A DNA stretch of 58,130 bases from positions 3,269 to 61,398 of the forward strand of contig JAQTNJ010000001.1 in NCBI GenBank assembly GCA_028713955.1, written 5' to 3'. This DNA comes from Syntrophorhabdaceae bacterium (GTDB lineage Bacteria; Desulfobacterota; Syntrophorhabdia; Syntrophorhabdales; Syntrophorhabdaceae). Shown piece by piece: positions 597 through 27,212 of the stretch. Both the position numbers and the translations under genes were made by a program. Every line of letters starts with the position of its first letter. Position 1 is the first letter of the stretch. The notes below the pieces were generated by a model. It did not search any database and was not told the DNA's origin. It saw only the letters and a program-made list of their open reading frames with translations.

Positions 597-645
597 TTTG
601 AACATTTGAAATTAAGATTTTGATATAACGTAGAAGATAGCTTGT
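597..645. repeat. 7-nt-phased degenerate array (TTTGAAC ATTTGAA ATTAAGA TTTTGAT ATAACGT AGAAGAT AGCTTGT) just 5' of family-A copy 1
   Basis: Read directly; the phase holds over 7 units. It contains GTTTTGAACATTTG (595-608), whose reverse complement occurs at 39382-39395. Confidence 0.5.
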
Positions 646-663
646 CCCAGATACATCCTGTAG

Positions 664-814: not shown

Positions 815-894
815 TATCCTATAATGGGAAATCAGAATTAAAAAACAGGGGTGTGGTGCTGCGGTGTGGTAAAAGCGGGGAGATTGTTGCGTTG

Positions 895-1863: not shown

Positions 1864-1886
1864 GCATCACCTTTCATCATCTTTCC

Positions 1887-3722: not shown

Positions 3723-3728
3723 AATATC

Positions 3729-5291: not shown

Positions 5292-5325
5292 ACCCGATGC
5301 TCCTTCAATTAAGATTCGTGAACAA

Positions 5326-7105: not shown

Positions 7106-7146
7106 TTTTGTACTTACCCGGATAATCTTCGCATAAAACCTTTACA

Positions 7147-8076: not shown

Positions 8077-8087
8077 CGCATTTGACA

Positions 8088-8199
8088 GTATATCGTATTT
8101 CGTATGTCGTATATCGAAAGATGCTCGATACTCGTCGCTTGATACTCGATAATCGACGCTGATAGCTGTATGCTGACTGCTGACGGCTATCTTCTATCT
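8088..8199. repeat. 7-nt-phased array of 16 units (GTATATC GTATTTC GTATGTC GTATATC GAAAGAT GCTCGAT ACTCGTC GCTTGAT ACTCGAT AATCGAC GCTGATA GCTGTAT GCTGACT GCTGACG GCTATCT TCTATCT)
   Basis: Phase checked base by base from 8088. The leading ACAGTATATCGTAT.TCGTAT.TCGTATATCGAAA block recurs at 9361-9387 and at 44707-44738. Confidence 0.8.
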
Positions 8200-8218
8200 A
8201 CTTTTATAATTCCTTAAT

Positions 8219-9331
8219 TTAACGGCCGAAGAATTCCCTGACTGTGCGTATGACAAGCTCCACGTCGTCATCGGTCATATCGTAGAAGAGAGGAATGGTG
8301 ATGATCTCCTTCCAGACCTTTTCCGTTGCAGGAAGTTCCGTTGAATATTTGCTGAAAAACGGCTGGAGATGATTCGGTATGTAGTGGACACCGCTCGCCA
8401 CCCCTTTTGAGGCGAGGAAATCCATCATCTCGTCCCTCCTGTCGCCTGCAACTCGGAGTATGTACATAAAGGGGGCCATCTCCCGCAGTTCCCACTTGAG
8501 CATCCTGATATCCCCGATCTCCTGAAAGGCATCGTTGTAGCGTTTTACAATAGCTTTCCTTCTCGCTATGAACCTGTCGAGTTTTCTGAGTTGAGCGATC
8601 CCTATAGCGGCATTGATATTGCTCATATGGTAACGGTATCCCTGCGTTACTACCTCATAATACCAGCTCTGGACCTTTTTCTGTCTCTGCCATGAATCCT
8701 TCGATATTCCAAGGGCCCTCTTCCTGCGTATCTCCTCTGCGATTCCGTCATCACTTAAGACTACTGCGCCTCCCTCACCACAGGTGAAATTCTTGATCGG
8801 GTCAAAGCTGAAACATGCTGCATCACCGATGCTGCCGATCTTCCTGTCTTTGTACGTTGAGCCAAAGGCATGTGCAGCGTCTTCGATAACAACGATCTTC
8901 TTCTCCCTGGCGATCCCGAGGAGCCTGTCCATATCGCAGGGATACCCGCAATAATGGACCGGCATGATCGCCTTTGTCCTGGGCGTTACCCTTCTTTCCA
9001 TATCGGCAATGTCAATATTGAGCGTGTCGGGATCGACCTCGCAAAACACCGGGGTCGCGCCAAGGGAAATAACGCCCTGTATACCGGCACAAAACGTCAA
9101 TGAAGGGGTGATCACCTCATCTCCGGGGCCTATCCCATAAGCGGCGAGCGCAATGTGGAGGGCTGTCGTCCCTGTATTTACCGCCACTGCGTTACGCGCA
9201 CCGAGATAGTCCTTTATCATATTTTCAAACTCTATCACCTGCAAGCCCATTCCGAGCCAGCCCGTCTCAAATACCTTCCTGACCTCTTCAAGCTCCTCGC
9301 TGCCGATAGATGGTCTATGTGCCTGCAACAT
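8219..9331 (-). CDS. DegT/DnrJ/EryC1-type PLP aminotransferase (PglE/PseC-like sugar 4-aminotransferase)
   Basis: NTGTTALHIAL, EDAAHAFGS, and FSFDPIKNFTCGEGG carrying the PLP lysine. Confidence 0.85.
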   Translation of the reverse strand: MLQAHRPSIGSEELEEVRKVFETGWLGMGLQVIEFENMIKDYLGARNAVAVNTGTTALHIALAAYGIGPGDEVITPSLTFCAGIQGVISLGATPVFCEVDPDTLNIDIADMERRVTPRTKAIMPVHYCGYPCDMDRLLGIAREKKIVVIEDAAHAFGSTYKDRKIGSIGDAACFSFDPIKNFTCGEGGAVVLSDDGIAEEIRRKRALGISKDSWQRQKKVQSWYYEVVTQGYRYHMSNINAAIGIAQLRKLDRFIARRKAIVKRYNDAFQEIGDIRMLKWELREMAPFMYILRVAGDRRDEMMDFLASKGVASGVHYIPNHLQPFFSKYSTELPATEKVWKEIITIPLFYDMTDDDVELVIRTVREFFGR

Positions 9332-9363
9332 TGTTTAAACCTCCATATTGTATCGTACTGACA

Positions 9364-9440
9364 GTATATCGTATATCGTATATCGAAAAAACCATACCGG
9401 ATGCTCGATACTCATCGCTGGATGCTGGATGCTCGTCTAT
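9364..9440. repeat. 7-nt-phased array (GTATATC x3 perfect, then GAAAAAA CCATACC GGATGCT CGATACT CATCGCT GGATGCT GGATGCT CGTCTAT)
   Basis: Read directly. Same orientation and same two sub-motifs (GTATATC, GATGCTC/GATACTC) as 8088-8199. Confidence 0.8.
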
Positions 9441-9441
9441 T

Positions 9442-11262
9442 TCAAGAGATTGAAGGCGGAAGAAAGGCCTTCATCGCCTCTTCTGTCGCGGGAGAAAATA
9501 GTTCCGGCAGCATCACGGAATAGTGAGGCGAAGAATAAGAAGGGTCTTTTATCCTCTTCTCAGCATCGATCAGTCTTTCCCTCAATTCGTCTACACTGCC
9601 GCAAGGCCTGCCGAACTCCTCAAACCATGCGAGGGGGTCCAGATCGATCTGGGTACTTCTTCCAATCCTTATTACCTCTTTATCCGCCATAACGCAGTCA
9701 AGAACCGCCCCGGTGGCTCCGCTGACAACGATATCGCATGCATTGAGGGCATCATCCATCGCCCCGGTAAAAACCTCTGTTTCCGGCAGGAAATCGCCCC
9801 GGATCTTTTTGATAATGGTCGTCTGCATAGGGTGAGGCTTCAGGATCATCCTGAACCTGTCGATCCCTTCAACGGCCTCCTTAAGCTTGTAAAACAGCTC
9901 CACTACCGTTTCCTTTTCTATAGGCAGGACAAGGAGGATTCTGAATTTTCCGGAGCTGCCGCCGGATGCCTGTCTGATATTGTGGAGATACAAATACCTC
10001 AGTGCTGCGCCGACGACAATACGTTCCCCGGGATAGTTCTCTTTCGCGAGTATGTCCCTGTATCTGCGTCCATTACATATGATCCTGTCGGGCAAAGGCG
10101 CGATGTCTCTTTCCTTCATATCGGTAAAGAAACAGAGCGCATTTGGAGGCGGGGCTATGTGAAAAAAACCATGTACAGCCGTTCCGGGCATGAACTCTCT
10201 TACACCGAGCTGGCTCAGTTTGTCGGTAAAAAGGTTCTCGAATCCGTCCATCACCATCTTCGGCTTTATCCCTTTTTTTGCAAGCCTTTTAAAGAGCAGA
10301 TAATACATCGACTCGAAACGTATAGGCTCGTTCCTGTGGTATTCATTGAACAGGATTGAACAGTCAGCGTCCTTCAGCACAACGGACCGGAATGCAAACC
10401 GGCGTTGCTTCAACCAAATCCGAAACGGGAACAGGTAGTCCCAAATACAATAGTGATCCTGGAGTATAATAAAATGATCTTTATTTGTATGAAAGAATGA
10501 AAAGGCCTTCCAGGTGGAACGGGTGATGTTCCGGTACGAGAAGCTTACAAAGGTCGCCTTGCGGACGTTATTCCTTTTATAGTAATCCGGCAGAATGGTG
10601 AAATAACGGTCCCTGAACTGACCATCAGGTCCAAAACATTTCTCATCAACCCACGTATGGAGGATCACATCGGGATTTTCCAGTGGAGTATACTTGCCGG
10701 TTATAATCGTATGATAAAGTTTGTTAAGCTTAGCAGACAGAAAGACCCCGAGATGGAGAACCAGTTTAAATAAACCTTCCGCAAAGACCCGGACCGGTCC
10801 GTCCTTCAGCGTAAAAGATGTCCTGCTCTCTGCCCTTATCCCTTTCTTCGCTGCAACGGATGAAATATTTTTTATAACGGCATTGCTGTCCGCTATGATG
10901 CACAGATCCTCACCTGAATCCATCACCTGAGAAGCAAGATACACATAGCAGCAGTGGAGAAAAAGGCTGCATGTCATCGTATTGCGCTCCGATATGGTGC
11001 TGGTCCACCATTCGATAGAATGATATTGCGCGCCAAGCCGCGCCGTCACCTCGTAAAATGGTCTTCTCAGGACAGCTGCCGTCTCCTGCAGCCTGCCGCT
11101 TATCTCTTCACAGTCTGCAACACCGTTAAGCCTCGCTTTCAGTTCCAGGACCTTTTCGTAATCGCCTATCAGAGGGTACCACGTCTTTGTACCTGAGCCT
11201 TTTAAAAGACCCGCAATCTTCTCATGGGATAGATCACTGTGGATAAGGATGATTTTGCCCAT
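9442..11262 (-). CDS. uncharacterised large protein, probably a GT-B-like transferase
   Basis: No motif I can name. The C-terminal third (RILLVLPIEKE...ILKPHP...DIVVSGATGAVLDCVMADKEVIRIG) looks like the nucleotide-sugar-binding half of a GT-B fold. It lies immediately downstream of the KdsB-like gene. Confidence 0.35.
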   Translation of the reverse strand: MGKIILIHSDLSHEKIAGLLKGSGTKTWYPLIGDYEKVLELKARLNGVADCEEISGRLQETAAVLRRPFYEVTARLGAQYHSIEWWTSTISERNTMTCSLFLHCCYVYLASQVMDSGEDLCIIADSNAVIKNISSVAAKKGIRAESRTSFTLKDGPVRVFAEGLFKLVLHLGVFLSAKLNKLYHTIITGKYTPLENPDVILHTWVDEKCFGPDGQFRDRYFTILPDYYKRNNVRKATFVSFSYRNITRSTWKAFSFFHTNKDHFIILQDHYCIWDYLFPFRIWLKQRRFAFRSVVLKDADCSILFNEYHRNEPIRFESMYYLLFKRLAKKGIKPKMVMDGFENLFTDKLSQLGVREFMPGTAVHGFFHIAPPPNALCFFTDMKERDIAPLPDRIICNGRRYRDILAKENYPGERIVVGAALRYLYLHNIRQASGGSSGKFRILLVLPIEKETVVELFYKLKEAVEGIDRFRMILKPHPMQTTIIKKIRGDFLPETEVFTGAMDDALNACDIVVSGATGAVLDCVMADKEVIRIGRSTQIDLDPLAWFEEFGRPCGSVDELRERLIDAEKRIKDPSYSSPHYSVMLPELFSPATEEAMKAFLPPSIS

Positions 11263-11269
11263 AAAAGGT

Positions 11270-12007
11270 CTACATGTACCTGGACTTGATCGTATCGTGC
11301 TTCATAAGCTCTCTCACGATGGCGAGGTCTTCGCCGGTATCGACGCTTATCTTCGCGTCATCGATCATAACGGCACGCATCTTTACGCCATGCTCCAGTA
11401 CCCTGAGATATTCATTATATTCTATTGTCTCGAGAGGAGTGGGCTCCCATCCCGAGTATTGCAGCAAAAACTCCTTTCTGAAGGGAACGATAAAACACAT
11501 CTTCAGCATCTTCTCTACCGGGGTCCTGGCATCACTCGGCAGGTCGGTCCTTGAACAGTACATGATGTTTCCGTCAAGGTCCAGCACCGCCTTGATGTCC
11601 GAAGAACTATTCTTTTTTGAGTATGGCGTTACACCGACGGCTATCATTACCTCCGGGTCATGAAGCAGAGGTCCCACAATGGCATCAATATGCTCAGGAT
11701 CAACAAGGGGCTCATCTCCCTGGACGTTTACGACAATGTCGCAATCAACATATGCGCACGCCTCGGCAAGCCTGTCCGAACCGCTCCTATGGTGTGTCCC
11801 TGTCATTATTACATTGACACCATGCGCCTCTCCTGCCTGTCTGATCTTCTCGTTGTCCGTAACAAGATACACCTCGTCAAGCCTCTTCGAAAGCTGTGCC
11901 CTTTTACAGGTATGGATAACCATCGGCCGCCCTTCGATATCGATCAGCGCCTTCTCCGGAAGACGGCTCGACTGAAGCCGTGCAGGGATCATACCCACTA
12001 CTTTCAT
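11270..12007 (-). CDS. kdsB: KdsB-family cytidylyltransferase (CMP-3-deoxy-ulosonate synthetase-like)
   Basis: MIPARLQSSRLPEKAL and VVNVQGDEPLV motifs; 245 aa. The symbol is family-level only, because the context suggests a substrate other than KDO. Confidence 0.65.
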   Translation of the reverse strand: MKVVGMIPARLQSSRLPEKALIDIEGRPMVIHTCKRAQLSKRLDEVYLVTDNEKIRQAGEAHGVNVIMTGTHHRSGSDRLAEACAYVDCDIVVNVQGDEPLVDPEHIDAIVGPLLHDPEVMIAVGVTPYSKKNSSSDIKAVLDLDGNIMYCSRTDLPSDARTPVEKMLKMCFIVPFRKEFLLQYSGWEPTPLETIEYNEYLRVLEHGVKMRAVMIDDAKISVDTGEDLAIVRELMKHDTIKSRYM

Positions 12008-12054
12008 CTGTTCGATTCCTCCCTTGACCTTTATCTTATTTTCATCACTGGTGA

Positions 12055-12849
12055 CTATTTACGTTCTTTTGCGAAAGCGATTTTGTAAAAAGACTCAAAC
12101 GCATGGAACAGGATCGTGCAATCGGGCATCAATGTGATGAACTGCATCCCCAGTTTGGTCATCCATTGAATATCCGTATCGTTCTTTGCCACATAACCGC
12201 CGGCAGCGATCCCTTTTCCCCTTATCTTTTTAATACAGACCTCAAGTTGTTTTCTGACCTCCGGATGGTCCACCTGCCCGGGATAACCGATGGCCTGCGA
12301 CAGGTCGTATGCGCCAATATAGATAACGTCGATCTTTTTGCGGATATCTTTTATGGACAGGATATCGTCAAGGTTGCCGATCCCGCCTTTTCCTTCAAGG
12401 AGAAGGATTATCATCGTCTTCCTGTTCTGTTTAACTGCATGGTTTCTGACATTGTGGAGCGAATATCCCCCTGCCCTTGTAAAGGGTGAAAAGCCGCGCT
12501 GTCCTACGGGGAAATATTTGGCATACGATATCGCCTCTTCAGCGTCTTGTCTTGATTCTATATGGGGGACGATCACGCCCGCGGCGCCTATATCGAGGGC
12601 GCTCAGTATCAATGACTCATCGTTCTTCGCCACGCGCACGATCGCCGCGCAGCCCTCAACCTCAGCTGACCTTATCATGTCCTCTACGGTTTCAAAGCCC
12701 TGGGGGCCGTGTTCCATGTCGATGATAACGAAATCGATCCCTGTTGCAGCGATGATATTGATCGTCGACGGCGACGGGATAACGCACCATGGACCATAGA
12801 CGACCTTCCCCTTTTTCAAAGAATCCTTAAGGCTCATTTTTTTCTTCAT
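12055..12849 (-). CDS. HpcH/HpaI-family class II (pyruvate) aldolase
   Basis: GIDFVIIDMEHGP and VRV...D...ILSALDIGAAGVIVPHIES pattern; 264 aa. Confidence 0.75.
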   Translation of the reverse strand: MKKKMSLKDSLKKGKVVYGPWCVIPSPSTINIIAATGIDFVIIDMEHGPQGFETVEDMIRSAEVEGCAAIVRVAKNDESLILSALDIGAAGVIVPHIESRQDAEEAISYAKYFPVGQRGFSPFTRAGGYSLHNVRNHAVKQNRKTMIILLLEGKGGIGNLDDILSIKDIRKKIDVIYIGAYDLSQAIGYPGQVDHPEVRKQLEVCIKKIRGKGIAAGGYVAKNDTDIQWMTKLGMQFITLMPDCTILFHAFESFYKIAFAKERK

Positions 12850-12866
12850 AGTCTTTAGCCCTCTGA

Positions 12867-13625
12867 TTAATTTACTATCTCTATCTTCGAAACGTCTTCG
12901 ACAACATAAGGGGTGATGCCTTTCAGTTGTTCCTTCGTTGCAAGACCTGTCAGGACGCCGATCGATACCTTTAAGCCGGCGTTGACCCCCATCTGCACAT
13001 CTGTCATCGCGTCACCGACCATGATCGCATTGCTGCGGTCTATTGCAAGGGCATTCAGGATAAAATTGATCTGTTCGGGATCCGGCTTGGGCCGCGAGAC
13101 ATCATCTGCCCCGACAACCAGATCAATTATGTCTGCGAAGCCAAGGCATTTCATCGCGAGTATTGCCCGTTCCCGACGGTCAATCGTCGCAATCGCCGTT
13201 TTGCATCCACAGCGAGAGGCATTCCGGAGAAGCCTTTCTGCGCCGTCTATGGGCCTGACAAACTGTTGAAGGTTTTTTGAAGAGATGTCGTCGGCCTGCT
13301 GAAAGACATTAAAGCAAAGATCGTAGACACCGTTGTATCCGGCATTGTTCAGGTAATCCACAACAGTCTGGAGCACTATTTCGCGTTTTTTCAGACCCAC
13401 AGGACCATCAGGTCTCAAACGACCCGTCTTCAGGTCGGCCCCCATCAAATACGCAATCTTCCCAAGATGATCTTTATCGAGCTTGAGGTTTTCGCATATC
13501 AGCGCTGCCCGCAGGCCCACCATCTGCGTCCAGTAATAGTGGAGCTCCATCAAGGTCCCGTCCTTATCAAAGATAAGTAACCCTATATCCGCAATCACTT
13601 CATTATTTACCCTGATGTCCGCCAT
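12867..13625 (-). CDS. HAD-superfamily phosphatase
   Basis: Motif I LIFDKDGTL and motif IV MVGDAMTDVQMG. Confidence 0.8.
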   Translation of the reverse strand: MADIRVNNEVIADIGLLIFDKDGTLMELHYYWTQMVGLRAALICENLKLDKDHLGKIAYLMGADLKTGRLRPDGPVGLKKREIVLQTVVDYLNNAGYNGVYDLCFNVFQQADDISSKNLQQFVRPIDGAERLLRNASRCGCKTAIATIDRRERAILAMKCLGFADIIDLVVGADDVSRPKPDPEQINFILNALAIDRSNAIMVGDAMTDVQMGVNAGLKVSIGVLTGLATKEQLKGITPYVVEDVSKIEIVN

Positions 13626-14634
13626 TAATAGCCTCTATATTCGATATTACCAATTGTTCAGCGATCGATATCGCTTCCTTCATAATGTCGATATTTGAAT
13701 CAAAATCTTCCATTGTCACATATCTTTTTACGATCTTTCTGGCAAAACTCCCTATTGCAACGCCGTGGGCATTCACGCCGCACTGCCTTGCAAGCAGACC
13801 TGTTTTACTGTTTGTTCCACCTGACAAAAGAACGATAACGGGGATGCCGCTTTTCATTACAACATCAGCACATGCAATGGCCTGGAGGGTCGTATTGTAG
13901 TCGTCGCCCTCTCCACTCATAGGTACGCCGTCTGCCTGCACTATCATTCGGCCACCTGTTATACCGTATAATCGCTTGATCCTCTCGATGAGGTGCCTGT
14001 TTGACAATAGCGACCTGTCGAGGCAGACGCTGATAAAATTATCAGTAATGATCTTGTTCAAAAGCATCCAGTCATGCATCACCGCCCCATCATCGGCGGT
14101 AACCGCGTGGAGCTCCATTGTCTCCACTCCGCTCTTCGCGCATTCCGGCAGTATGTTTTCAAAATCAGCAAGTTTATGAAGATATTTGATCGCGTCTGAG
14201 GGACAGACCTTCTCGCAATCTCCGCACCCTATGCACTTGAACTCCATGACCGAATAGTCCTCTGTAATAGCGTTCTGTCTGCAAACCTTCACGCACTCGC
14301 CGCATTCCACGCAAACGTTACGGTCGATCGTCGCCTTACGAACGTGCGGATCACCCTTCAAACCGATACTGACATTCAGGTATGGTCTTATCTCTATTTT
14401 TTTTCCCAGCATAGGTGCAAGTTCGTAAGCCCTTTCAATACCCTTCTTCGCGGCTTCAACAACGTCAATGTTCGCAGACAGGTCGTGCATTGACACACCG
14501 GCGAGCGTATATATCGTTGCAAGCCTCCTCACCTCCGTGAGGTCCTCGTTCCCTGCGCCGCAGACAAGTTTAAAGAATTTCTTTTCACGGAAAATATTTT
14601 TTAAAATATCATAGCGTTCATTGTTCATGCTCAT
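13603..14634 (-). CDS. 4Fe-4S dicluster protein (possibly an LdpA/DUF561-like barrel with a ferredoxin insert)
   Basis: CVECGECVKVC and CIGCGDCEKVCP cysteine clusters in the middle. FKLVCGAGNED lies near the N-terminus. The family assignment is from memory only. Confidence 0.5.
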   Translation of the reverse strand: MSMNNERYDILKNIFREKKFFKLVCGAGNEDLTEVRRLATIYTLAGVSMHDLSANIDVVEAAKKGIERAYELAPMLGKKIEIRPYLNVSIGLKGDPHVRKATIDRNVCVECGECVKVCRQNAITEDYSVMEFKCIGCGDCEKVCPSDAIKYLHKLADFENILPECAKSGVETMELHAVTADDGAVMHDWMLLNKIITDNFISVCLDRSLLSNRHLIERIKRLYGITGGRMIVQADGVPMSGEGDDYNTTLQAIACADVVMKSGIPVIVLLSGGTNSKTGLLARQCGVNAHGVAIGSFARKIVKRYVTMEDFDSNIDIMKEAISIAEQLVISNIEAINGGHQGK

Positions 14635-16349
14635 ATATAATTCTCTATCCCCTTAAAGAACGCCTTATACCCTGTCGGGGTGAGGATATGGATGCCCTCT
14701 TTCCCCTGGTGGATCAGGTAGGCATCGATTTGTTCAAGAAAGAGCTGGTTGAAGCGGTGACGCTCGATAACGAGGTCCCTTTCCTCAGGCTCCACCTTCT
14801 CGTCATAGAAGTGGAACCCGCCTGTCGCATCTGCGCCGATGTACCCATCAAGGCCCACGGCGAATATCCGTTCTGCGCCCATGACGATGGCGATGCCCAT
14901 CAAGAGCACAGAGATGGTCCTGCAGTTTGACTGGATGATCCCGTCGACGATGCCGAAGTCACCGAGGGTATCTTCAAAATAGAGGGTCTCATAGGGGCGT
15001 GCCGTATACTCGCGTACCATCTCCTCGGGGATGTTTTCGCCTATCATAAGGATTGAGTCCTTTTCGACGGTATCGACGTAGTCGGTGAAGCGCTTCTTGT
15101 TGTTGAAGGCATGGTAATGAGGGGTAAAAAAACCGGAGATATAATTGGCGCCGAGGATGATGGGATTATGTTTTTTGATAAAGGCCTCTATTCTGGGCCG
15201 ATACTCCTTCAGGGTGGGGCCGTTTGCAAGGATCAGAAACTCCCTCCCCGCGTGGCGGTCCTTATAGGGGACTCCCCCATCGATGCTCCGTTCAGGGGTT
15301 ACTGCCTTCTCGGGTGCGGAGGGTGTTGAACTTTTGTGCTGTGTGCTCCCTATCATGCCGCTTTTGATTATGTCGTTGAGGATATCCTTTGAAAAACCTA
15401 CGGGGTTGATCTTCTTTACGATCTCAAGGGCACTCCATATGTCTTCCATGGAATATTCGCGGTAGTCGACAAGCGTCTTCGGATAGTAGGGATGGCACTG
15501 GAAGATGCCGGAAAGCATATAGGGAAGCTGGTATCCCCATGGCTCGTCGGTATCGATGTTCATGAAAAACCGGTCGATGACATGGAGGACCGGGATCACA
15601 TTATACTTGTCGGTCGTCGAGAGCTGGAGGTAAGAGAGAAGGACCTCGGTGGGGAGGTTTCCTGCGCCCCTGCCCATCCCGTATATCGTCGAATCCACGA
15701 TGTCAATGCCGCATTTGATCGCCTCCAGAGTATTGGCAAATGCCATCTGGAGACCGTTATGAGGATGGAATCCCACCTTGATGTGTTTCAGTTCCTGGAA
15801 GGGCTCGATGAGGGGCCGCATCTGGTCAGGCAGGATCGAACCATAGCTGTCGGCGATATAGACGTAATCGATGGATGAGTCCTTGAGGACGGTGACCAGT
15901 TCCCTGATCTCGTCTCGTGTATAGCTCGTGATCCCCATGGCCTGGAGGGAAACCAGAAAACCTTTCTTCCGGATAGCCTCAAGCTGTTTTATCGCATTGA
16001 AAGCACCGTCCTTGTGGACGGCAATCCTGACGAGGCTCACGTACTGGCAATAGTCGTCGGTGATGTCATCCGTGTCGAGTTTGCCGAAATCGCCCATGAT
16101 TGCGACCTTTGCCCCGTTTATCCCCTGCACCACATCCCTGAGGTCATCGATATCGGTAAACCTCCAGGGGCCGAACTGATCTCTTTTGAAATATTTCTCG
16201 GTGCCGCGGAAGCCGATCTCTACGATATCGATCCCTGCCTTCGAGAGGGCACGGTAGACCTCGCGGACCATCCTTTTATCGAAGCGCCAGTTGTTGAGGT
16301 ACCCGCCGTCGCGGATGGTACAGTCTAAGATCTCATAGTTCAGACTCAT
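14631..16349 (-). CDS. fusion protein: N-terminal HMGL-like (DmpG-type pyruvate aldolase/carboxyltransferase) TIM barrel plus C-terminal DUF115/MptE-like (Maf-type) domain
   Basis: N-terminal half: LDCTIRDGGY, GFHPHNGLQMAFANTLEAIKCG, DSTIYGMGRGAGNLPTE. C-terminal half: FLILANGPTLKEY...ILGANY...AVGLDGY. Confidence 0.6.
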   Translation of the reverse strand: MSLNYEILDCTIRDGGYLNNWRFDKRMVREVYRALSKAGIDIVEIGFRGTEKYFKRDQFGPWRFTDIDDLRDVVQGINGAKVAIMGDFGKLDTDDITDDYCQYVSLVRIAVHKDGAFNAIKQLEAIRKKGFLVSLQAMGITSYTRDEIRELVTVLKDSSIDYVYIADSYGSILPDQMRPLIEPFQELKHIKVGFHPHNGLQMAFANTLEAIKCGIDIVDSTIYGMGRGAGNLPTEVLLSYLQLSTTDKYNVIPVLHVIDRFFMNIDTDEPWGYQLPYMLSGIFQCHPYYPKTLVDYREYSMEDIWSALEIVKKINPVGFSKDILNDIIKSGMIGSTQHKSSTPSAPEKAVTPERSIDGGVPYKDRHAGREFLILANGPTLKEYRPRIEAFIKKHNPIILGANYISGFFTPHYHAFNNKKRFTDYVDTVEKDSILMIGENIPEEMVREYTARPYETLYFEDTLGDFGIVDGIIQSNCRTISVLLMGIAIVMGAERIFAVGLDGYIGADATGGFHFYDEKVEPEERDLVIERHRFNQLFLEQIDAYLIHQGKEGIHILTPTGYKAFFKGIENYI

Positions 16350-18157
16350 CCCTTCTCCTCTCCTTTTTCCCTTTGGTATAGGGCATTATAATAGCCATCC
16401 TTTGCAAGAAGCTCCGTATGCGTTCCCTCTTCCACGATCTCACCTTGTTTCATAACGAATATCCTGTCTGCATGCTCGATGGTCGAAAGCCTGTGGGCTA
16501 TAATGACCGTCGTCCTGTTCTTTTCCACCTCTCTCAATGAATCCTGTATCACCTTTTCCGATATATTGTCGAGGGAGCTTGTAGCCTCATCGAGGATGAG
16601 GATCTCGGGATTCTTTATGACTGCCCTCGCGATGGCTATCCTCTGGCACTGACCTCCCGACAGCGTGATGCCCCTGTCGCCGACAATCGTGTCGTATCTC
16701 TCAGGAAGCTCCGCGATAAACTGGTGGGCGTTGGCGATCCTTGCCGCATCAATGATCTCCTTCTCTGTGGCATCAAGCTTGCCGATCCTGATGTTATCCC
16801 TGACAGAGGCATGGAATATGAATGTATCCTGGCTCACCATGCTCAGGTGCTTCAGCCATGAAGAGCGTGAGTAATCCTGATAATCGATCCCGTCAACAAG
16901 CACCTGTCCCGATGAGGGCCCGTACAGACGAAGCAACAGGTCGGCCAGCGTTGACTTTCCTGATCCGGACTCTCCTACAATGGCAATCGTTCTGTTTCTC
17001 GGTATGGTGATATCGATATCTTTGAGGACATTTGCCCTCGTGGGATAAGAGAATGATACATGGCTCAGTTTCATTTCACCCGTTAAACCCTGGAAATCCT
17101 TCCCGCCGTCATCCGTATCATATTCCGTGTCAGCCAGTGTCTCGTAGGTAAGACGAATACGTGGAGCAAGGCCTTTAAGCCCCATCCATTGATGCGCTAT
17201 CTCCTTGACGGAAGGCATGAGCCTCATAAGTGCACCGACATAAACAATGATGATAGGGAATATCTTCATGAAATCATCGGGCATATAGAGTTTTGCGTAG
17301 ATGATCGCGAGGATCGTACTGAGGGAACCGACCGATAATATCAGATGTGAGGAAAAATACGCCGGTGCAGTATAGGTAAATTGCTGTTTCCTTGCAACGG
17401 TCAACTCTTTCCTCAGTTTCTCAAACCAGTACCTGTAATTGTCGAAGAGTTTTATCTGCCTTATCCCTGAGATCGATTCTGAAAATAGCGTCGTGATATT
17501 CGCATACGCTATCTGCGCTCTTTGAGCGGAAGGATTGATGATCTTGTTGGAAAGCACATAGACGATCACGCTGAATGCGGCAATAACGATGTACATAAGG
17601 AGGGTAAATTTTATTGATATCGTCAGCAGAAGTACTGTTATGATCGCGATCCTGAAAAATTCCACACCGGCCTTGGGAAAGTAAAAGAACATCTCTCCCA
17701 CCGATCCCGACGCCTCCCTGCCGATATACATCAGCTCTCCGTGCTTCCTGGTGTGGAAATAGCTATACTGGTTCAGCAATATCTTCCGGAAGATCCTGTT
17801 CTGCAAATCAGTGTAAAGCTGCAGATGATACCAGAGGGCAGCGCTTTCCGATATGATCCCGAATATCCGGCTCAATATGATCAATATAAGAAGCAGTAAA
17901 CTCGCGGCGACGAGCGCATCGCTGACAGGGAGAAATGATGAAGCCGAATCGAGGTATTCAAGTATTTTCCCACCGTACTGCGCTGCCGAGCCTGTTTTTG
18001 AAAGGATCCTGCTCAGAAAGGGATAAAGGGCGCCAACGCTGAGCGTCTCCAGGAGGGCATAGATAAAAAGCAACAGGAATACAAAAAGGGCCTTGAGCCA
18101 ATAGGGCCTCAGGAACCAGACCATGATCTGAATATCACTCAGTTGTTTTTTCTGCAT
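16346..18157 (-). CDS. fused TMD-NBD ABC exporter (MsbA/PglK-like)
   Basis: Six N-terminal helices. Walker A GESGSGKST, signature LSGGQCQRIAIARA, Walker B ILILDEATS. Confidence 0.9.
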   Translation of the reverse strand: MQKKQLSDIQIMVWFLRPYWLKALFVFLLLFIYALLETLSVGALYPFLSRILSKTGSAAQYGGKILEYLDSASSFLPVSDALVAASLLLLILIILSRIFGIISESAALWYHLQLYTDLQNRIFRKILLNQYSYFHTRKHGELMYIGREASGSVGEMFFYFPKAGVEFFRIAIITVLLLTISIKFTLLMYIVIAAFSVIVYVLSNKIINPSAQRAQIAYANITTLFSESISGIRQIKLFDNYRYWFEKLRKELTVARKQQFTYTAPAYFSSHLILSVGSLSTILAIIYAKLYMPDDFMKIFPIIIVYVGALMRLMPSVKEIAHQWMGLKGLAPRIRLTYETLADTEYDTDDGGKDFQGLTGEMKLSHVSFSYPTRANVLKDIDITIPRNRTIAIVGESGSGKSTLADLLLRLYGPSSGQVLVDGIDYQDYSRSSWLKHLSMVSQDTFIFHASVRDNIRIGKLDATEKEIIDAARIANAHQFIAELPERYDTIVGDRGITLSGGQCQRIAIARAVIKNPEILILDEATSSLDNISEKVIQDSLREVEKNRTTVIIAHRLSTIEHADRIFVMKQGEIVEEGTHTELLAKDGYYNALYQREKGEEKG

Positions 18158-18170
18158 GGGACTTTATGGT

Positions 18171-18327
18171 TGAGTTTCGTGCCAGGCTTTCCCCGCAAAC
18201 ACGCTCATTCCGCTCCAGCGGCTCCATTCGCTCGCTGTTTCCGCTTCGGAACTTTTGCCTAACGGCAAAAGACCGAGCTTCCTTGCCTCACGACGGTTTG
18301 CTAAAGGAGGGCCTGGCACGAAACTCA
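18171..18327 (-). repeat. Family-A element, copy 3 (inverted): same core, with different 17-bp perfect arms (18171-18187 / 18311-18327)
   Basis: The arms are TGAGTTTCGTGCCAGGC and GCCTGGCACGAAACTCA. The reverse complement of the interior aligns to copies 1 and 2 (AGCAAACCGTCGTGAGGCAAGGAAGCTCGGTCTTTTGCC GTTA GGCAAAAGTTCCGAAGC...GAGCGTGTTTGC). Confidence 0.85.
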
Positions 18328-18401
18328 GCTATTTATCTGGAATAAACTTATTTGTCCGATGATAAACCTTTTTATTTAAATCCCCACATTGAAAAATAAG
18401 G

Positions 18402-19160
18402 CTATTCCTTTCTGTTTTTAATAAATATCCTGAGAAATTTTGAATCAAATGCATGCCTTTTTGTATTGTATGGCTCAACAGGCAGACCAAAATTACAGTT
18501 CTCCCCGTAAAAGAGCCTGTATTCAACGGTGGTGAAACCCAGATTACGGAATATCTTTTCGTAGTTGTAGTGGAAAAGCCTTGATCTTACGCTTGTTATG
18601 ATCCCTATATATTGTTTCGACACCCTTGCGATCTCGTTGAAAAGCGCCTTGTCTTCGTACGGGATATGCTCAAAGACACCGATGGAGAACACGACATCGT
18701 AACGTTTATCGGGTATCTTCTTGATCTCGTCAAGGGCATTGCCTGTGAAAAATGTCCCTTTTTCATAAAGGTCCGGGAAATGTTCCTTCAGAACAATGTT
18801 CACCGATGCATCGTTTATCTCTATCCCTGCAAGGTCCGCATAACCGTGCTTCAAGAGATAATTCAGGTTCCTGCCGGCGTTGCACCCGATCTCCAGGAAT
18901 GATGCATTTTCTCCCAGCGCCTTAAGGAGTCCCCCCTCGAACATAACGTAGGTGCTGTTGTCTTCCTGGAGGTAATTCTCCGGCCCGTGTCTTTCGCCCA
19001 TATCACGGGAACGCCAGTATTCACGCTCATTCCTTTTCCATGGAGGACTGGCCCCGGCCATAGAAGAAATTTTCGTAATAGCGGAATCTATTTTCTGTAG
19101 TCCATTATTACCACGAAGACCTGTTTTGTCGATAATTATTTTTATTATCTTTTTCATCAT
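18402..19160 (-). CDS. class I SAM-dependent methyltransferase
   Basis: FLEIGCNAGRNLNYL (motif I) and YDVVFSIGVFEHI. Confidence 0.75.
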   Translation of the reverse strand: MMKKIIKIIIDKTGLRGNNGLQKIDSAITKISSMAGASPPWKRNEREYWRSRDMGERHGPENYLQEDNSTYVMFEGGLLKALGENASFLEIGCNAGRNLNYLLKHGYADLAGIEINDASVNIVLKEHFPDLYEKGTFFTGNALDEIKKIPDKRYDVVFSIGVFEHIPYEDKALFNEIARVSKQYIGIITSVRSRLFHYNYEKIFRNLGFTTVEYRLFYGENCNFGLPVEPYNTKRHAFDSKFLRIFIKNRKE

Positions 19161-19180
19161 CTATGTATTCTACTGGTCAT

Positions 19181-21106
19181 TTATCCGGCTATAATCTTTT
19201 CCAGCTCCAAACGGATATTCTTCGCAACGTTCCCGTGATAGCAGTCACTGTAAAATTCCTTCTTGATCTTTTCAATGGTATCCTTGTCAAGGTAGACACC
19301 ATTAATGAAGTTCTGGACATGATACTTAAGTATCTCGTAACTATCTGCGATGATGGGTAGTTTGTTATAGTTAAAGAGTGTGTCCAGCCTGTCTGTTATT
19401 TCATATATTATAACCTTTCTCCCGGCAGCAAGCAGCTCATCACATAGCGACGTATGGCAGGCTATCGTAAGGTCTACCTTTTCGCCAATGAAATAGGGGT
19501 TGTATCTTGCGTAATCTAGCTCAATCTCCATATTTTCAGTCCCGTTGATTACCTCAACCAAGTCAATTATATAGCGGCTCTTGTATGAGTCAGCCTCTTT
19601 CCCCTTGATTACAATGTACAGGGACGGAAATTCATTGGCAAGTTTTATGAGGCACTTATAAAATTGGATTGTTTCATAGGCTTTTGCCGCGGGCCGTAAT
19701 GTATCGTCAATATCATTTGCCGGCAGATAGAAATCAAGGGCCATGACAAGCTTTTTCGTTTTTTTTATTGAATCATACTTTTCATCGTAAATATGTTTCT
19801 TTTCATATTTATATAAATTATCAACCCTTACAAGGCCAACGGGTAAAAAGTTGTTGACTTTAGATGTTTTCAGGCACGGTTCTCTGATAATGTCGCCGGC
19901 TACAAAGTAATAATCCATTATAAGGTAATTATCAGGGAAAAATGCCATGATGAACCTTTCTTCTGTTGCGCAAATCTTTATATCAAGCATTGTCAGAGCT
20001 GCTGCCAGGTATTTCGGGAAAAGAAATTCATATCCCACGAGCGCGACTTTAAGGTTTTTGAATTGAGAAAATATCATGCAGCACCGTCTGATCCTCTTGA
20101 AAATAAAGACAGAGAGCAGCAGGTACCATATACCGTACACAAACATTTCTTTCAGAAGAGTAAAATTCATATTTTTTAAAAACATTATCAAGCTTTTGTG
20201 AAGCACTTTTTTATCATATGCTATATCGTTCAGGTCGGTATAGGATATGCTATTTTCTTTGTAGTACTTATAGCTGCCCGACATGTAACTCGCGTCTTTT
20301 TCGCCCAATGAAACATGCAGTATTTTCGACTTATAAAAAGGCGAGTCGGGTCTGGCATTGTAAAAATGATCCTTCATGAACATCTCACCATAATATACGC
20401 CTTGATGCGGAAAATATACGACGCTGTATATATCGGGGTTGATGTCACATTTTTCATACACACCCAGGTTTGGATTAATGCTTTGTATCTCACCCATTTT
20501 CCTTGATGACGAAAACTTTCTTTGTAACATCCCTATCAGACTACTGTATGCCATATTGAATATTGTGTAAAATAAAAGGCCAGGGAAAATAGTGACGCTC
20601 AATTCGCTGGCAAGGTCCTTTCGCAAAAAAGATGCAAACGAATGGAATGCTATGATTCTCACTTTTTTAAACCTTTGATTCGCTAAAAGATACTCGGCGG
20701 CTGCATATTGCTCGGCGAAAGGCGTAATAACTCTGTTAAAATAATATTTCCATGCTACATCAATCTTTCCCTGGTGTTCCTGTCTGACATTAAGGAGTTT
20801 CTTTATAATAGAATAGCTCTTTGATTTGTTCGTTATCTGGAATATATTTTCGGCGAACTCAACCGCAAGCGACTGGGCTCTTGCGTAGCAAGAAAAATTA
20901 TTATACTCCCTTTTGACCCATCTGATACCATGCCTTTCATAGAGGTTTAATTTCTCTGTATTTCTGAAAGCCTTGCTCATATCAAGGAAATAAATTGTGT
21001 AACTTTTAAAAAATCTAAGACATAGCAAAATAGGCAGCCAGAGATAGGTTAACCTGTAAATTACCAGAGCTCTTTCCCTGGTATCATTCATTTGACAAGC
21101 TTCCAA
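19181..21106 (-). CDS. uncharacterised large protein, AT-rich gene, probably a GT-B-like transferase
   Basis: Hydrophobic helices at the N-terminus and mid-protein. The C-terminal block LYIVIKGKE...DLTIACHTSLCDELLAAGRKVIIYE resembles the C-terminus of the 606-aa and 385-aa proteins. Confidence 0.3.
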   Translation of the reverse strand: MEACQMNDTRERALVIYRLTYLWLPILLCLRFFKSYTIYFLDMSKAFRNTEKLNLYERHGIRWVKREYNNFSCYARAQSLAVEFAENIFQITNKSKSYSIIKKLLNVRQEHQGKIDVAWKYYFNRVITPFAEQYAAAEYLLANQRFKKVRIIAFHSFASFLRKDLASELSVTIFPGLLFYTIFNMAYSSLIGMLQRKFSSSRKMGEIQSINPNLGVYEKCDINPDIYSVVYFPHQGVYYGEMFMKDHFYNARPDSPFYKSKILHVSLGEKDASYMSGSYKYYKENSISYTDLNDIAYDKKVLHKSLIMFLKNMNFTLLKEMFVYGIWYLLLSVFIFKRIRRCCMIFSQFKNLKVALVGYEFLFPKYLAAALTMLDIKICATEERFIMAFFPDNYLIMDYYFVAGDIIREPCLKTSKVNNFLPVGLVRVDNLYKYEKKHIYDEKYDSIKKTKKLVMALDFYLPANDIDDTLRPAAKAYETIQFYKCLIKLANEFPSLYIVIKGKEADSYKSRYIIDLVEVINGTENMEIELDYARYNPYFIGEKVDLTIACHTSLCDELLAAGRKVIIYEITDRLDTLFNYNKLPIIADSYEILKYHVQNFINGVYLDKDTIEKIKKEFYSDCYHGNVAKNIRLELEKIIAG

Positions 21107-23749: not shown

Positions 23750-23754
23750 TTATT

Positions 23755-26144: not shown

Positions 26145-26211
26145 TTATTATCTTTATACAAAACTTGACAACTTCATCATTTATTATAGTCTATAGGGGC
26201 ATTGTATTATG

Positions 26212-27201: not shown

Positions 27202-27212
27202 GTGTTCCCCTT

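Follow-up and report, generated by a model that had tools for sequence, protein, structure and literature searches.

Organization of the gene cassette

The window, that is, the whole stretch of 58,130 nucleotides analyzed here from a Syntrophorhabdaceae bacterium, carries five contiguous minus-strand ORFs at 11270-16349, which are flanked by a gene for a 606-aa protein and by an ABC exporter gene. The features are as follows.

9442-11262, minus strand: 606-aa putative GT-B glycosyltransferase (HP motif, KpsC similarity)
11270-12007, minus strand: KdsB-family cytidylyltransferase, 245 aa (PF02348, CTP_transf_3, 1.9e-42)
12055-12849, minus strand: HpcH/HpaI-family class II pyruvate aldolase, 264 aa (PF03328, 4.5e-31)
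12867-13625, minus strand: HAD-IA phosphatase, 252 aa (Pfam HAD_2, 8.5e-24; Hydrolase, 3e-22)
13603-14634, minus strand: predicted LdpA-like TIM barrel with an inserted 2x[4Fe-4S] ferredoxin domain, 343 aa (LdpA_C, 7e-14)
14631-16349, minus strand: 572-aa "hub" protein, HMGL-like and MptE/Maf-like (PF00682, 2.2e-26, residues 6-242)
15360..16349, minus strand: N-terminal HMGL-like (DRE-TIM metallolyase) domain of the hub (PF00682)
14634..15287, minus strand: C-terminal MptE/Maf-like domain of the hub (weak PF01973 and fold match)
16346-18157, minus strand: MsbA/PglK/HepA-like ABC exporter (Pfam ABC_membrane and ABC_tran; NCBIfam HepA_fam and MsbA-like)

The initial annotation had described five tightly packed genes of these families, and the ORF calls and Pfam matches agree exactly with its coordinates and junctions (gaps of 47 and 17 nt, overlaps of 23 and 4 nt). 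The overlaps imply translational coupling. At one end, 7 nt separate the 606-aa ORF from the KdsB-family gene; at the other, the ABC exporter gene overlaps the hub gene by 4 nt and is thus translationally coupled to the cassette. The exporter is context and not a core part, being kept upstream of the hub in the close relatives L006-L008 and L088 (89-90% identity) and weakly elsewhere.

Two of the five descriptions had to be revised. First, the protein annotated as a 2x[4Fe-4S] protein does carry the Fe-S motifs, but it is not a plain ferredoxin. It matches LdpA_C, Fer4 families and DUF561 in Pfam, and its AF2 model (pLDDT 88.6) has TrpA, class II FBP aldolases, sulfo-sugar-phosphate aldolases and KDPG aldolase as best Foldseek matches, which indicates a TIM barrel of the LdpA-like kind, its fold being of the phosphate-binding type. 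Second, the HMGL-like assignment holds for the N-terminal part of the hub and was incomplete, as a second, MptE/Maf-like domain was found at its C-terminus.

Conservation across phyla

All five genes were found in 27 of the 80 loci fetched from GTDB species genomes, and the full cassette was present at 3/3 loci when sampling started from the KdsB side. The co-occurrence of the five families, on which the initial annotation had made its reading depend, is therefore strongly conserved. The 27 full loci span Desulfobacterota, Planctomycetota, Omnitrophota, Margulisiibacteriota/Saganbacteria, Bdellovibrionota, Hydrothermarchaeota and Altiarchaeota, and the cassette is present in MAGs of archaea and of CPR bacteria including Parcubacteria, these archaeal and CPR occurrences depending on MAG binning. 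For example, the order hub, LdpA-like, HAD, HpcH, KdsB and a protein of about 610 aa in Brocadiaceae (L001) is identical in a Methanobacteriota MAG (L003). The arrangement goes far beyond what chance would give: one gene order is shared across phyla, from relatives of sulfate reducers to anammox bacteria and archaea. The HAD gene lies directly after the LdpA-like gene at every locus that has it, in the majority of full cassettes the KdsB-like gene is followed by the 606-aa-type gene, and HpcH and the KdsB subfamily of the cassette (KdsB-A) co-occur almost one-to-one over the 80 loci.

The hub is associated even more widely with cytidylyltransferases. A same-strand CTP_transf_3 gene lies within 3.5 kb of the HMGL-like gene in 61 of 82 loci, most of the exceptions being truncated contigs, and loci that at first appeared to hold the hub only had an adjacent CTP_transf_3 gene on closer look. 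In a Woesearchaeota MAG (L085), the two are combined in a single 584-aa ORF with PF00682 (3.9e-23) and PF02348 (1.6e-20). At loci without LdpA, HAD and HpcH, the hub is found with a PfkB kinase and with other subfamilies of CTP_transf_3, so that its reaction is not tied to the exact five-gene set. The unit extends beyond the five genes and is built from modules, namely the aldolase/Maf-like hub, the LdpA and HAD pair, the HpcH and KdsB pair, and a transferase. Our literature search found no published description of such a gene set.

Features of the cassette enzymes

The best PDB matches of the HMGL-like domain are 3dxi (B. vulgatus BVU_2661, "putative aldolase", 1e-44) and DmpG (1nvm, 2e-22). 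Its R13/D14 and H195/H197 align with R17/D18 and H200/H202 of DmpG, whereas DmpG His21 is replaced by Tyr17. All 14 homologs compared have R13, D14, E44, H195 and H197, and this invariant DRE-TIM catalytic set marks the domain as an enzyme. For HpcH, the best PDB matches are YfaU/RhmA (2vws, 4e-33), GarL and HpaI, and the invariant H47, R72, E152 and D182 align with YfaU H49, R74, E153 and D179. The initial annotation had allowed that both aldolases might group with catabolic enzymes. The evidence is against this: the NCBIfam scores are far below the equivalog cut-offs (hub domain, 118 bits against 286 for the DmpG type; HpcH, 149 against 369 for HpaI, 129 against 407 for GarL, and also far under the RhmA cut-off), the genes are located in glycan clusters outside catabolic operons, and no catabolic partners (DmpF, hpa/gar/rhm genes) were found among the annotated surrounding genes.

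In the LdpA-like protein, both CxxCxxCxxxC motifs, C25, C165, C204, C285 and SGGTN at 271-275 are invariant in 22 homologs. We regard it as a putative redox enzyme whose substrate would be a phosphorylated intermediate; the conserved SGGTN/G-x-x-x-G site could hold FMN and not a sugar phosphate. The HAD-IA phosphatase, with D20, D22, G23, T24, K180, D205 and D209 near-invariant in 21 homologs, is a putative functional counterpart of KdsC or of a NulO-9-P phosphatase.

The C-terminal domain of the hub is a more distant match. PF01973 is precomputed for many hub homologs, and was weak in all 13 members tested (best 4.4e-7; window protein 0.0025, 18 bits against a gathering score of 34.6). The AF2 model resembles phage proteins annotated as MptE-like (Foldseek 1.6e-5, probability 1.0), and profile comparison with Cst-II gave only 12% probability. 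Sialyltransferase activity on flagellin is proven for Maf proteins that have such a domain (bioRxiv 10.1101/2023.12.03.569772). We consider the domain a putative CMP-ulosonate-dependent transferase, and it may alternatively be a kinase.

KdsB-A scores above the NCBIfam kdsB cut-offs (TIGR00466, 166 bits against 155; NF003952, 228 against 193), and its NCBIfam name would be KdsB. The residues for CTP binding and catalysis are conserved, at positions that correspond to E. coli R10, K19, Q98, D100, R157, E210, R213 and D235. However, it has LKMCFIVPF and EYNEYLR in place of the canonical LRHLGIYGY and EMLEQLR, and has lost an 8-residue loop. H-L-G-x-Y and L-E-Q-L-R are common to E. coli KdsB and a canonical-like Opitutales copy, and KdsB-A has neither; its replacement motifs are conserved and subfamily-specific, and its best 120 homologs, which come from different phyla, all reach at least 73% identity. 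Judged from these sequences, KdsB-A is a distinct, highly conserved paralog with a predicted change in the Kdo sugar pocket, and a putative CMP-ulosonate synthetase whose sugar would not be Kdo.

The 606-aa protein has no Pfam match and a weak match to TIGR04326 ("surface carbohydrate biosynthesis protein", 3.9e-20), and DUF6716 ("putative glycosyltransferase") matches 15 of the 23 members of its family. H477-P478 are among the only invariant residues. Against the PDB, the family profile matched KpsC β-Kdo transferases only, marginally (6mgb, E = 5e-4, about 76 residues) and aligned on K-x-H-P. This places the invariant His-Pro on the HP motif of KpsC β-Kdo transferases (PMC9587256) and supports the earlier suggestion that this protein is the matching transferase. 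It is a putative GT-B glycosyltransferase that would use a CMP-ulosonate.

A proposed PEP-independent route and its alternatives

Enzymes of the HpcH/HpaI and DmpG types join pyruvate to aldehydes, and KdsB/NeuA-type enzymes turn 2-ulosonic acids into CMP esters. We give about even chances to the reading that the cassette is a self-contained module for the synthesis, activation and transfer of a 3-deoxy-2-ulosonic (Kdo-like) acid that is distinct from Kdo and from the nonulosonic acids, without a PEP-dependent synthase. What we observe is the gene order, the enzyme families, the intact catalytic residues, the conserved linkage, one fusion and a changed sugar pocket; every substrate and product named below we infer. 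First, a phosphorylated sugar precursor would be the substrate of the LdpA-like barrel, probably for a redox reaction (deoxygenation or reduction, for example), and the adjacent HAD phosphatase would strip the phosphate. Second, a divalent-metal pyruvate aldolase would condense pyruvate with an aldehyde to a 4-hydroxy-2-oxo acid. The HMGL-like domain, a putative pyruvate-dependent ulosonate synthase, is most likely the universal synthase, because it is almost always coupled to a cytidylyltransferase and once fused to it; HpcH might build the acceptor or precursor, or perform a condensation specific to this sugar. Third, the KdsB paralog would convert the ring-closed ulosonate and CTP to the CMP-sugar. 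Finally, the 606-aa protein, the Maf-like domain or both would transfer the sugar to a surface glycan, whose export may be aided by the co-transcribed ABC transporter. The pyruvate-aldolase route of the initial annotation thus survives, in a unit larger than its five genes, on the conserved linkage, the non-catabolic aldolases with their cytidylyltransferase coupling, the distinct KdsB paralog and the transferase evidence. Against it, two aldolases exceed the need of one condensation.

In an alternative version of this pathway, HpcH is the true synthase, a KdsA analog using pyruvate and an aldose phosphate, with HAD as KdsC analog and KdsB for activation. The hub would then be mainly a Maf-like transferase, Maf-type domains being proven transferases of ulosonates, and its DRE-TIM domain an accessory that binds, epimerises or trims the keto acid or makes a substituent. 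The near one-to-one pairing of HpcH with KdsB-A, the parallel of the trio to KdsA/KdsC/KdsB and the characterised relatives of HpcH (YfaU/RhmA and GarL), which make 2-keto-3-deoxy sugar acids, favor this. We nevertheless consider it unlikely, because the HMGL-like domain and not HpcH is the near-universal, once fused, neighbor of cytidylyltransferases, many loci with hub and CTP_transf_3 have no HpcH at all, and the DRE-TIM catalytic set is invariant.

Less probable again is that with KdsB-A the cluster simply carries a CMP-Kdo synthetase of the KpsU kind, and that the 606-aa protein is a β-Kdo transferase for a Kdo-containing O-antigen or capsule, with Kdo supplied by housekeeping KdsA/KdsC or by HpcH as a pyruvate-dependent Kdo synthase, and the remaining genes making something else. 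The scores of KdsB-A above the kdsB cut-offs would fit, as would its 38.5% identity to E. coli KdsB, which is equal to that of the Opitutales copy and not lower than between genuine KdsBs. KpsC enzymes are the sole PDB relatives of the 606-aa family, and in Desulfocarbo a related cassette lies beside Wzm/Wzt carrying a Wzt_C cap-binding domain, which resembles terminal β-Kdo capping. However, the replaced pocket motifs and the deleted loop speak against a CMP-Kdo synthetase, as does the occurrence in MAGs of archaea, Parcubacteria and similar lineages, which to our knowledge are not known to make Kdo or LPS. Moreover, neither the cassette nor its flanks in the window contain a gene for an arabinose-5-phosphate isomerase (KdsD/KpsF), and strict linkage to four other enzymes would be unexplained.

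The initial annotation had also pointed to the absence of a KdsA- or NeuB-type synthase. This is correct for the cassette, which contains neither, but not for the window, where two NeuB genes (21088-22185 and 44816-45829) belong to full Pse-like and Leg-like pathways that each have a cytidylyltransferase of their own (23755-24624 and 34252-34980). The cassette, 4.7 kb from PseI, could accordingly be an accessory module that tailors the neighboring pseudaminic or legionaminic acids, for example with a pyruvate-derived side chain, without a sugar of its own; Maf-like domains usually act on Pse or Leg. In the window the cassette shares a cluster with the full Pse-like and Leg-like routes, and B12-radical SAM genes accompany both. 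We hold tailoring to be improbable, since a NeuB homolog lies within 10 kb of just 19 of 82 related loci, most full cassettes with long flanks have none, and the cassette keeps its own KdsB-type enzyme despite those of the Pse and Leg routes. Together with the finding of a LegG-type epimerase within 10 kb at none of the 82 loci, this suggests that the cassette is independent of NulO synthesis.

That catabolic aldolases and a housekeeping kdsB merely lie together by chance and form no functional unit, as routine single-gene annotations (4-hydroxy-2-oxovalerate aldolase, HpcH aldolase, phosphatase, ferredoxin, KdsB) would have it, is effectively refuted by the synteny over many phyla and two domains, as well as by the coupled overlaps, the missing catabolic partners and the fusion protein.

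Gene organization of the cassette and the surrounding cluster

The cassette consists of five closely packed genes and a sixth gene directly downstream, and the gene at its upstream end, which encodes the hub (a 572-aa protein with two domains), overlaps an exporter gene.

9442-11262, minus strand, 606-aa protein, 7 nt downstream of the five-gene set
11270-12007, minus strand, KdsB-family cytidylyltransferase (CTP_transf_3), 245 aa, above the kdsB cut-offs (Pfam, NCBIfam)
12055-12849, minus strand, HpcH_HpaI aldolase (HpcH), 264 aa (Pfam)
12867-13625, minus strand, HAD-IA hydrolase, 252 aa (Pfam, NCBIfam)
13603-14634, minus strand, LdpA-like 2x[4Fe-4S] protein, 343 aa (Pfam)
14631-16349, minus strand, hub, 572 aa, HMGL-like on residues 6-242 (Pfam)
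16346-18157, minus strand, MsbA/PglK-like ABC exporter, 4-nt overlap with the hub gene

In the ORF list, the first two junctions of the five genes, in order of coordinates, are gaps of 47 and 17 nt and the last two are overlaps of 23 and 4 nt, which reproduces exactly the coordinates and junctions of the initial annotation. The five families named there were also confirmed by Pfam and NCBIfam, but the LdpA_C and DUF561 regions of the Fe-S protein and the second domain of the hub had been overlooked. A DegT aminotransferase gene (8219-9331) was considered as a further member and rejected, as other loci have it in a dTDP-amino-sugar set of its own.

All genes in the window are on the minus strand, and the whole window is a single large surface-glycan cluster. 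Besides the cassette, it holds two sets of nonulosonic acid (NulO) genes and several ORFs without a Pfam match.

Pseudaminic-acid-like (Pse-like) set
21088-22185, minus strand, PseI/NeuB
22137-22679, minus strand, PseH
22676-23749, minus strand, PseG
23755-24624, minus strand, PseF
26212-27201, minus strand, PseB

Legionaminic-acid-like (Leg-like) set
34252-34980, minus strand, LegF
42422-43501, minus strand, PtmE
43520-44695, minus strand, LegG
44816-45829, minus strand, LegI/NeuB
45835-46533, minus strand, LegD
46452-47603, minus strand, LegC
47536-48519, minus strand, LegB

ORFs without a Pfam match
19181-21106, minus strand, 641 aa, between PseI and a methyltransferase of Pse-associated type
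27213-28370, minus strand, 385 aa
31806-32942, minus strand, 378 aa
32924-34243, minus strand, 439 aa
56663-57712, minus strand, 349 aa

The Leg-like set also includes a PtmA/F-like gene, and both NulO routes (Pse-like at 21088-27201, Leg-like at 34252-48519) are apparently complete within the one cluster. NeuB-type synthases had been reported as absent from the cassette; this holds for the cassette but not for the window, where PseI/NeuB and LegI/NeuB are both present. The window contains three CTP_transf_3 genes, and since both NeuB proteins already have a cytidylyltransferase of their own, the KdsB-like enzyme of the cassette is the third and is left without a PEP-dependent synthase as its partner. 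No KdsA-like or KdsD-like gene was found within the 58-kb window. The G+C content is about 0.49 at 1-18000, which includes the cassette, about 0.40-0.42 at 18000-34000 (the Pse-like segment) and higher again beyond; this drop and later rise suggest that the cluster is of mosaic origin. An AMP-binding (adenylating) enzyme, a radical SAM protein and a hexapeptide acyltransferase are encoded at 28367-31748, between the Pse-like and Leg-like segments, and may serve in N-acyl tailoring of a NulO.

Conservation and modularity across genomes

The cassette is not confined to this genome. A protein search with the hub gave over 2,000 clusters of homologs, of which the closest with names are from Syntrophorhabdaceae, and the order hub, LdpA-like protein, HAD, HpcH, CTP_transf_3 and a protein of about 610 aa is shared by a Brocadiaceae genome and a Methanobacteriota MAG. 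A scan of GTDB species genomes gave 482 matching stretches, of which 80 loci were fetched and searched by tblastn with the window proteins. All five genes were present in 27 of the 80, and many of the other loci end at contig edges. The full five-gene loci come from Desulfobacterota, anammox and other Planctomycetota, Omnitrophota, Margulisiibacteriota/Saganbacteria, Bdellovibrionales, Hydrothermarchaeota and Altiarchaeota, the archaeal assignments resting on MAG binning. To counter sampling bias, a second sampling was started from three KdsB-type homologs, and the full cassette was found in all three loci sampled from that side. Between phyla, the KdsB paralogs are 65-77% identical. The linkage of the cassette is real, and it is either ancient or widely spread by horizontal transfer.

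Comparison of the loci resolved four modules. The first is the hub itself, and the second is the pair of LdpA-like and HAD genes, which are adjacent in every case. The third is HpcH with KdsB-A, the subfamily of the cassette's cytidylyltransferase (44-91% identical to that of the window), and these two co-occur nearly one-to-one. The fourth comprises alternative partners of the hub, namely KdsB-B (a more distant subfamily, 27-35% identical) and other CTP_transf_3 types, often with a PfkB kinase, as in loci from Chloroflexota (L005), Desulfocarbo indianensis (L046) and Brocadia (L027). In 61 of 82 loci the hub has a CTP_transf_3 gene on its own strand no more than 3.5 kb away, most exceptions being short contigs, and in loci first taken as "hub only" such a gene adjoins the hub as well. 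The most direct coupling was found in a Woesearchaeota MAG (L085, CAZCDH010000005.1, 9980-11734), in which a 584-aa ORF carries an HMGL-like domain (residues 9-239, 3.9e-23) followed by a CTP_transf_3 domain (residues 349-562, 1.6e-20), the latter replacing the usual C-terminal domain of the hub. The fusion argues that the product of the HMGL-like (DRE-TIM) domain is the substrate of the cytidylyltransferase, or very close to it.

Several loci have additional features around the hub. In the cultured D. indianensis SCBM (L046, 5496-15386), a kinase-type variant of the module, with genes for a 662-aa protein, the hub, KdsB-B, PfkB and a 696-aa protein, directly follows Wzm and Wzt, the latter with a Wzt_C carbohydrate-binding domain, which hints that the sugar could be the cap that ends the chains of an ABC-transporter-dependent O-polysaccharide. 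Proteins of about 640-660 aa with no assigned family precede the hub in this locus and in L001, L005 and L027. Fusions of Glycos_transf_2 with CTP_transf_3 lie just upstream of the hub in L001 (6533-7894) and L023 (8567-9946), similar ORFs of about 450 aa occur in other loci, and these fusions are often accompanied by an extra 245-aa CTP_transf_3 gene and a protein of about 640 aa of no known family.

The KdsB paralog

By profile, the cassette's cytidylyltransferase belongs to the family of KdsB (CMP-Kdo synthetase, EC 2.7.7.38; PF02348 at 1.9e-42; TIGR00466 at 166 bits against a cut-off of 155.2; NF003952 at 228 against 193); the PseF HMM gave 35.9 bits. It retains every residue for CTP binding, Mg binding and catalysis: the equivalents of E. 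coli KdsB R10, K19, Q98, D100, R157, E210, R213 and D235 are at least 90% conserved in 33 cassette-type sequences. The paralog is 38.5% identical overall to E. coli KdsB, a value that does not discriminate. The canonical H-L-G-x-Y and L-E-Q-L-R motifs of the C-terminal domain, which we take to line the Kdo pocket, read LRHLGIYGY and EMLEQLR in E. coli and LLHLGMYAY and EKLEQLR in a canonical-like copy from Opitutales. KdsB-A instead has conserved LKMCFIVPF and EYNEYLR together with the deletion of an 8-residue loop, and KdsB-B has a third version of its own. Judging from motif conservation, the sugar pocket of the paralog has probably been remodelled.

The hub and the HpcH aldolase

Two proteins of the cassette belong to aldolase families. 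First, the hub's N-terminal domain matches PF00682 with 93 bits (gathering score 29), and its closest solved relative is Bacteroides vulgatus BVU_2661 (PDB 3dxi, a "putative aldolase" from structural genomics; 1e-44, and 7.6e-20 by Foldseek), followed by DmpG-type aldolases; acetyl-CoA-dependent synthases were poorer matches. BVU_2661, whose solved structure covers the N-terminal domain only, shares with the hub the signatures RDGGY..NW.F, FHxH.NLQ, GMGRGAGNL and WG..LPYMLSG. R13, D14, E44, H195 and H197 are invariant in hub homologs and constitute an Asp-Arg-Glu triad with an HxH metal site, and R13, D14, H195 and H197 align with R17, D18, H200 and H202 of DmpG. The catalytic His21 of DmpG is replaced by Tyr17, a family-specific tyrosine. 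When the hub was tested as a DmpG/BphI aldolase, neither PF07836 nor an adjoining dehydrogenase was found, and the TIGR03217 score was 118 against 286.

Second, HpcH matches PF03328 with 108 bits (gathering score 25), and its catalytic H47, R72, E152 and D182 do not vary and correspond in the alignment to H49, R74, E153 and D179 of YfaU. Its scores are well below the equivalog cut-offs of the catabolic enzymes (HpaI, 149 against 368.8; GarL, 129 against 406.8; RhmA, 120 against 441), and its neighbours are glycan genes and no catabolic operon.

The C-terminal domain of the hub resembles MptE and Maf proteins. PF01973 (MptE-like, Maf domain) is precomputed for many hub homologs; it scores 18.1 bits on the hub (E = 0.0025), below the gathering score of 34.6, and is weak in all 13 homologs tested (best 4.4e-7). 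With the AF2 model (pLDDT 75.7), a Foldseek search of BFVD retrieved several phage proteins annotated as MptE-like (E 1.6e-5 to 1e-4, probability 1.0), which have the same fold. The sequence-profile search of the PDB with this domain gave no matches, and the 50 matches listed in the PDB fold search with the full-length model were TIM barrels throughout, which is silent on the C-terminal domain. In a profile comparison with an approximate Cst-II sequence, the probability was 12%, with NCRTIS..GLDGY aligned to NQRITSG..GIDFY, which we take as a lead only. Because MptE is a pyrophosphokinase, this domain may, by analogy, have a kinase role. Maf proteins with a PF01973-type domain are demonstrated flagellin sialyltransferases with a Pse donor, as for Shewanella Maf-1 and Maf-2 (bioRxiv 10.1101/2023.12.03.569772). 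The BFVD matches also include a Klosneuvirus "HMGL-like protein" (9.5e-11), and viral versions of hub-domain enzymes may exist.

The LdpA-like Fe-S protein and the HAD phosphatase

In addition to 2x[4Fe-4S], Pfam assigns LdpA_C and DUF561 to the Fe-S protein, which is therefore a TIM barrel of LdpA type into which a ferredoxin module is inserted. The same arrangement of LdpA_C, inserted 2x[4Fe-4S] and a DUF561 N-terminus is seen in LdpA, the cyanobacterial circadian-input Fe-S protein, and in ycf23/DUF561. Both Cys motifs are present, and the LdpA equivalog score is 160 bits against 450; the protein is an LdpA homolog, not an ortholog. Unlike LdpA, it shares an operon for putative sugar biosynthesis with a HAD phosphatase, and its hosts are non-photosynthetic anaerobes. 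In its model (pLDDT 88.6, pTM 0.86), the barrel is closest in fold to TrpA, class II FBP aldolases, sulfo-sugar-phosphate aldolases and KDPG aldolase, and its SGGTN / G-x-x-x-G site is of the kind that typically binds phosphate, but could alternatively hold the phosphate of FMN. C25, C165, C204 and C285 are invariant in 22 homologs in addition to the eight ferredoxin cysteines, and at least C25 and C204 are placed by the model at the C-terminal ends of barrel strands. These four cysteines may provide a third cluster or catalytic thiols. The HAD protein has kept its DxD nucleophile motif, its Lys and its acidic motif IV.

The 606-aa protein as a candidate transferase

The 606-aa protein has no Pfam domain. 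The alignment of its family (23 sequences) has 8 invariant positions, H477-P478 included, and its profile matched in the PDB KpsC β-Kdo transferases alone (6mgb, E = 5e-4, over about 76 residues), a weak similarity in sequence, with H477-P478 aligned to K-V-H-P of KpsC. In sialyl- and Kdo-transferases, the role of the histidine in the "HP motif" has been described (PMC9587256), and H477 is predicted from the alignment to be this residue. DUF6716, a "putative glycosyltransferase" family, matches 15 of the 23 members, and Capsule_synth (PF05159) matches three of them weakly. BLAST detected no similarity between the 606-aa protein and the 641-aa protein of the Pse-like segment, so they are not paralogs at this level.

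Discussion

Taken together, sequence, predicted structure and gene context point to the cassette as a module that would make, activate and transfer a CMP-linked sugar of the 2-keto-3-deoxy acid type, neither Kdo nor a NulO. The pathway logic is that of Kdo and NulO biosynthesis, with a first committed enzyme of a different class and an added Fe-S TIM barrel. To our knowledge, a PEP-dependent KdsA- or NeuB-type synthase opens every route described so far to a CMP-activated ulosonic acid (Kdo, Kdn, Neu5Ac, Pse, Leg and relatives). Here a pyruvate aldolase is the most likely synthase, and we favour the DRE-TIM domain of the hub as the general synthase because it is universally coupled to cytidylyltransferases and once fused to one. 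HpcH would then set which specific sugar KdsB-A activates. A serious rival is that HpcH is the analog of KdsA and the HAD phosphatase that of KdsC. The LdpA-like protein would carry out redox chemistry on a phosphorylated intermediate, which the HAD phosphatase would then dephosphorylate. Hexulosonic or heptulosonic acids, their 6-deoxy variants and ulosaric (diacid) sugars are possible products consistent with these families.

Two other roles were considered and rejected. The hub as a NeuB substitute inside otherwise complete NulO clusters does not agree with the loci, since NeuB lies within 10 kb of the hub in 19 of 82, LegG is near none and PseB/PseG are rarely near. Phosphonate biosynthesis by an HMGL-like phosphonomethylmalate synthase and a cytidylyltransferase, a reading prompted by PMC8942020, was dismissed because the window contains no PEP mutase family gene.

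Compared with the Kdo pathway (KdsD, KdsA, KdsC and KdsB, then WaaA or KpsC/KpsS/WbbB), the cassette has a common logic: a 3-deoxy-2-ulosonate is made, a HAD phosphatase serves a phosphorylated stage (a probable one in the cassette), the CMP ester is formed by a KdsB-family enzyme, and transfer is by an HP-motif GT-B protein that resembles KpsC. However, KdsD and KdsA (PEP-dependent, with the DAHP-synthase fold) are missing, and their position is taken by two pyruvate-type metal aldolases and the Fe-S TIM barrel. The HAD enzyme is of type IA, as opposed to type IIIA for KdsC. The KdsB paralog also differs in its probably remodelled sugar pocket, and the cassette is found in lineages without LPS as well, although its CPR and archaeal occurrences depend on MAG binning. 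With the NulO pathways (NeuB/PseI/LegI, NeuA/PseF/LegF, and Maf or sialyltransferases), it shares a CMP-activated α-keto acid sugar for surface glycans, a CTP_transf_3 cytidylyltransferase, a Maf/MptE-like domain and the same kind of gene cluster. In contrast, the NulO synthase is a PEP-dependent NeuB, which the cassette lacks and mostly does not have nearby, and its cytidylyltransferase is KdsB-like, not NeuA/PseF-like. The catabolic enzymes HpaI/HpcH, GarL, RhmA/YfaU and DmpG/BphI have the fold and the metal-binding and catalytic residues of the cassette aldolases (DmpG His21 excepted), and the expected chemistry is the same reversible condensation of pyruvate with an aldehyde to a 4-hydroxy-2-oxo acid. 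However, the cassette proteins are far below the equivalog cut-offs, have neither a DmpF partner nor the DmpG communication domain, and lie in biosynthetic glycan clusters, where the reaction direction is presumably synthetic.

We tentatively propose, at somewhat under an even chance, that DRE-TIM aldolase domains, which usually occur in fusion with a Maf-like domain and in one case with a cytidylyltransferase, are a third, PEP-independent class of ulosonic-acid synthase, that together with dedicated KdsB paralogs they make new CMP-activated keto-deoxy acid sugars in many uncultured phyla and in archaea, and that the LdpA/ycf23-type Fe-S barrel is a sugar-phosphate enzyme. If this is true, the pyruvate-aldolase route is a new biosynthetic solution, probably to a new sugar or sugar family, in hosts that include anammox bacteria, syntrophs, Omnitrophota and, by MAG binning, CPR bacteria and archaea. 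The LdpA family would gain its first biochemical context and a testable enzymatic role, thousands of proteins annotated as "KdsB", "4-hydroxy-2-oxovalerate aldolase" or "ferredoxin" would have to be reannotated, and the aldolases and transferases could be useful tools for glyco-engineering. A literature search on the gene set, 3DXI/BVU_2661, TIGR04326 and LIC12162 found no description. The chemical space of ulosonic acids is still open, as a 2026 preprint reports undescribed, "higher-carbon" CMP-activated ulosonic acids in Magnetospirillum (bioRxiv 10.64898/2026.04.20.719630); this cassette is not its subject.

B12-binding radical SAM enzymes are encoded inside both NulO segments of the window (24621-26144 and 39744-41732). 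In two other loci such a gene is inserted in the cassette itself, at the HAD/HpcH junction in L087 (4630-6180) and at the HpcH/KdsB junction in L088 (5445-6986), the latter being the position of the 47-nt gap in the window. Homologs are also near 44 of the 82 hub loci. These insertions and neighbours suggest optional C-methylation of the sugars by B12-radical SAM enzymes, which can be compared with the "higher-carbon" acids of the Magnetospirillum preprint.
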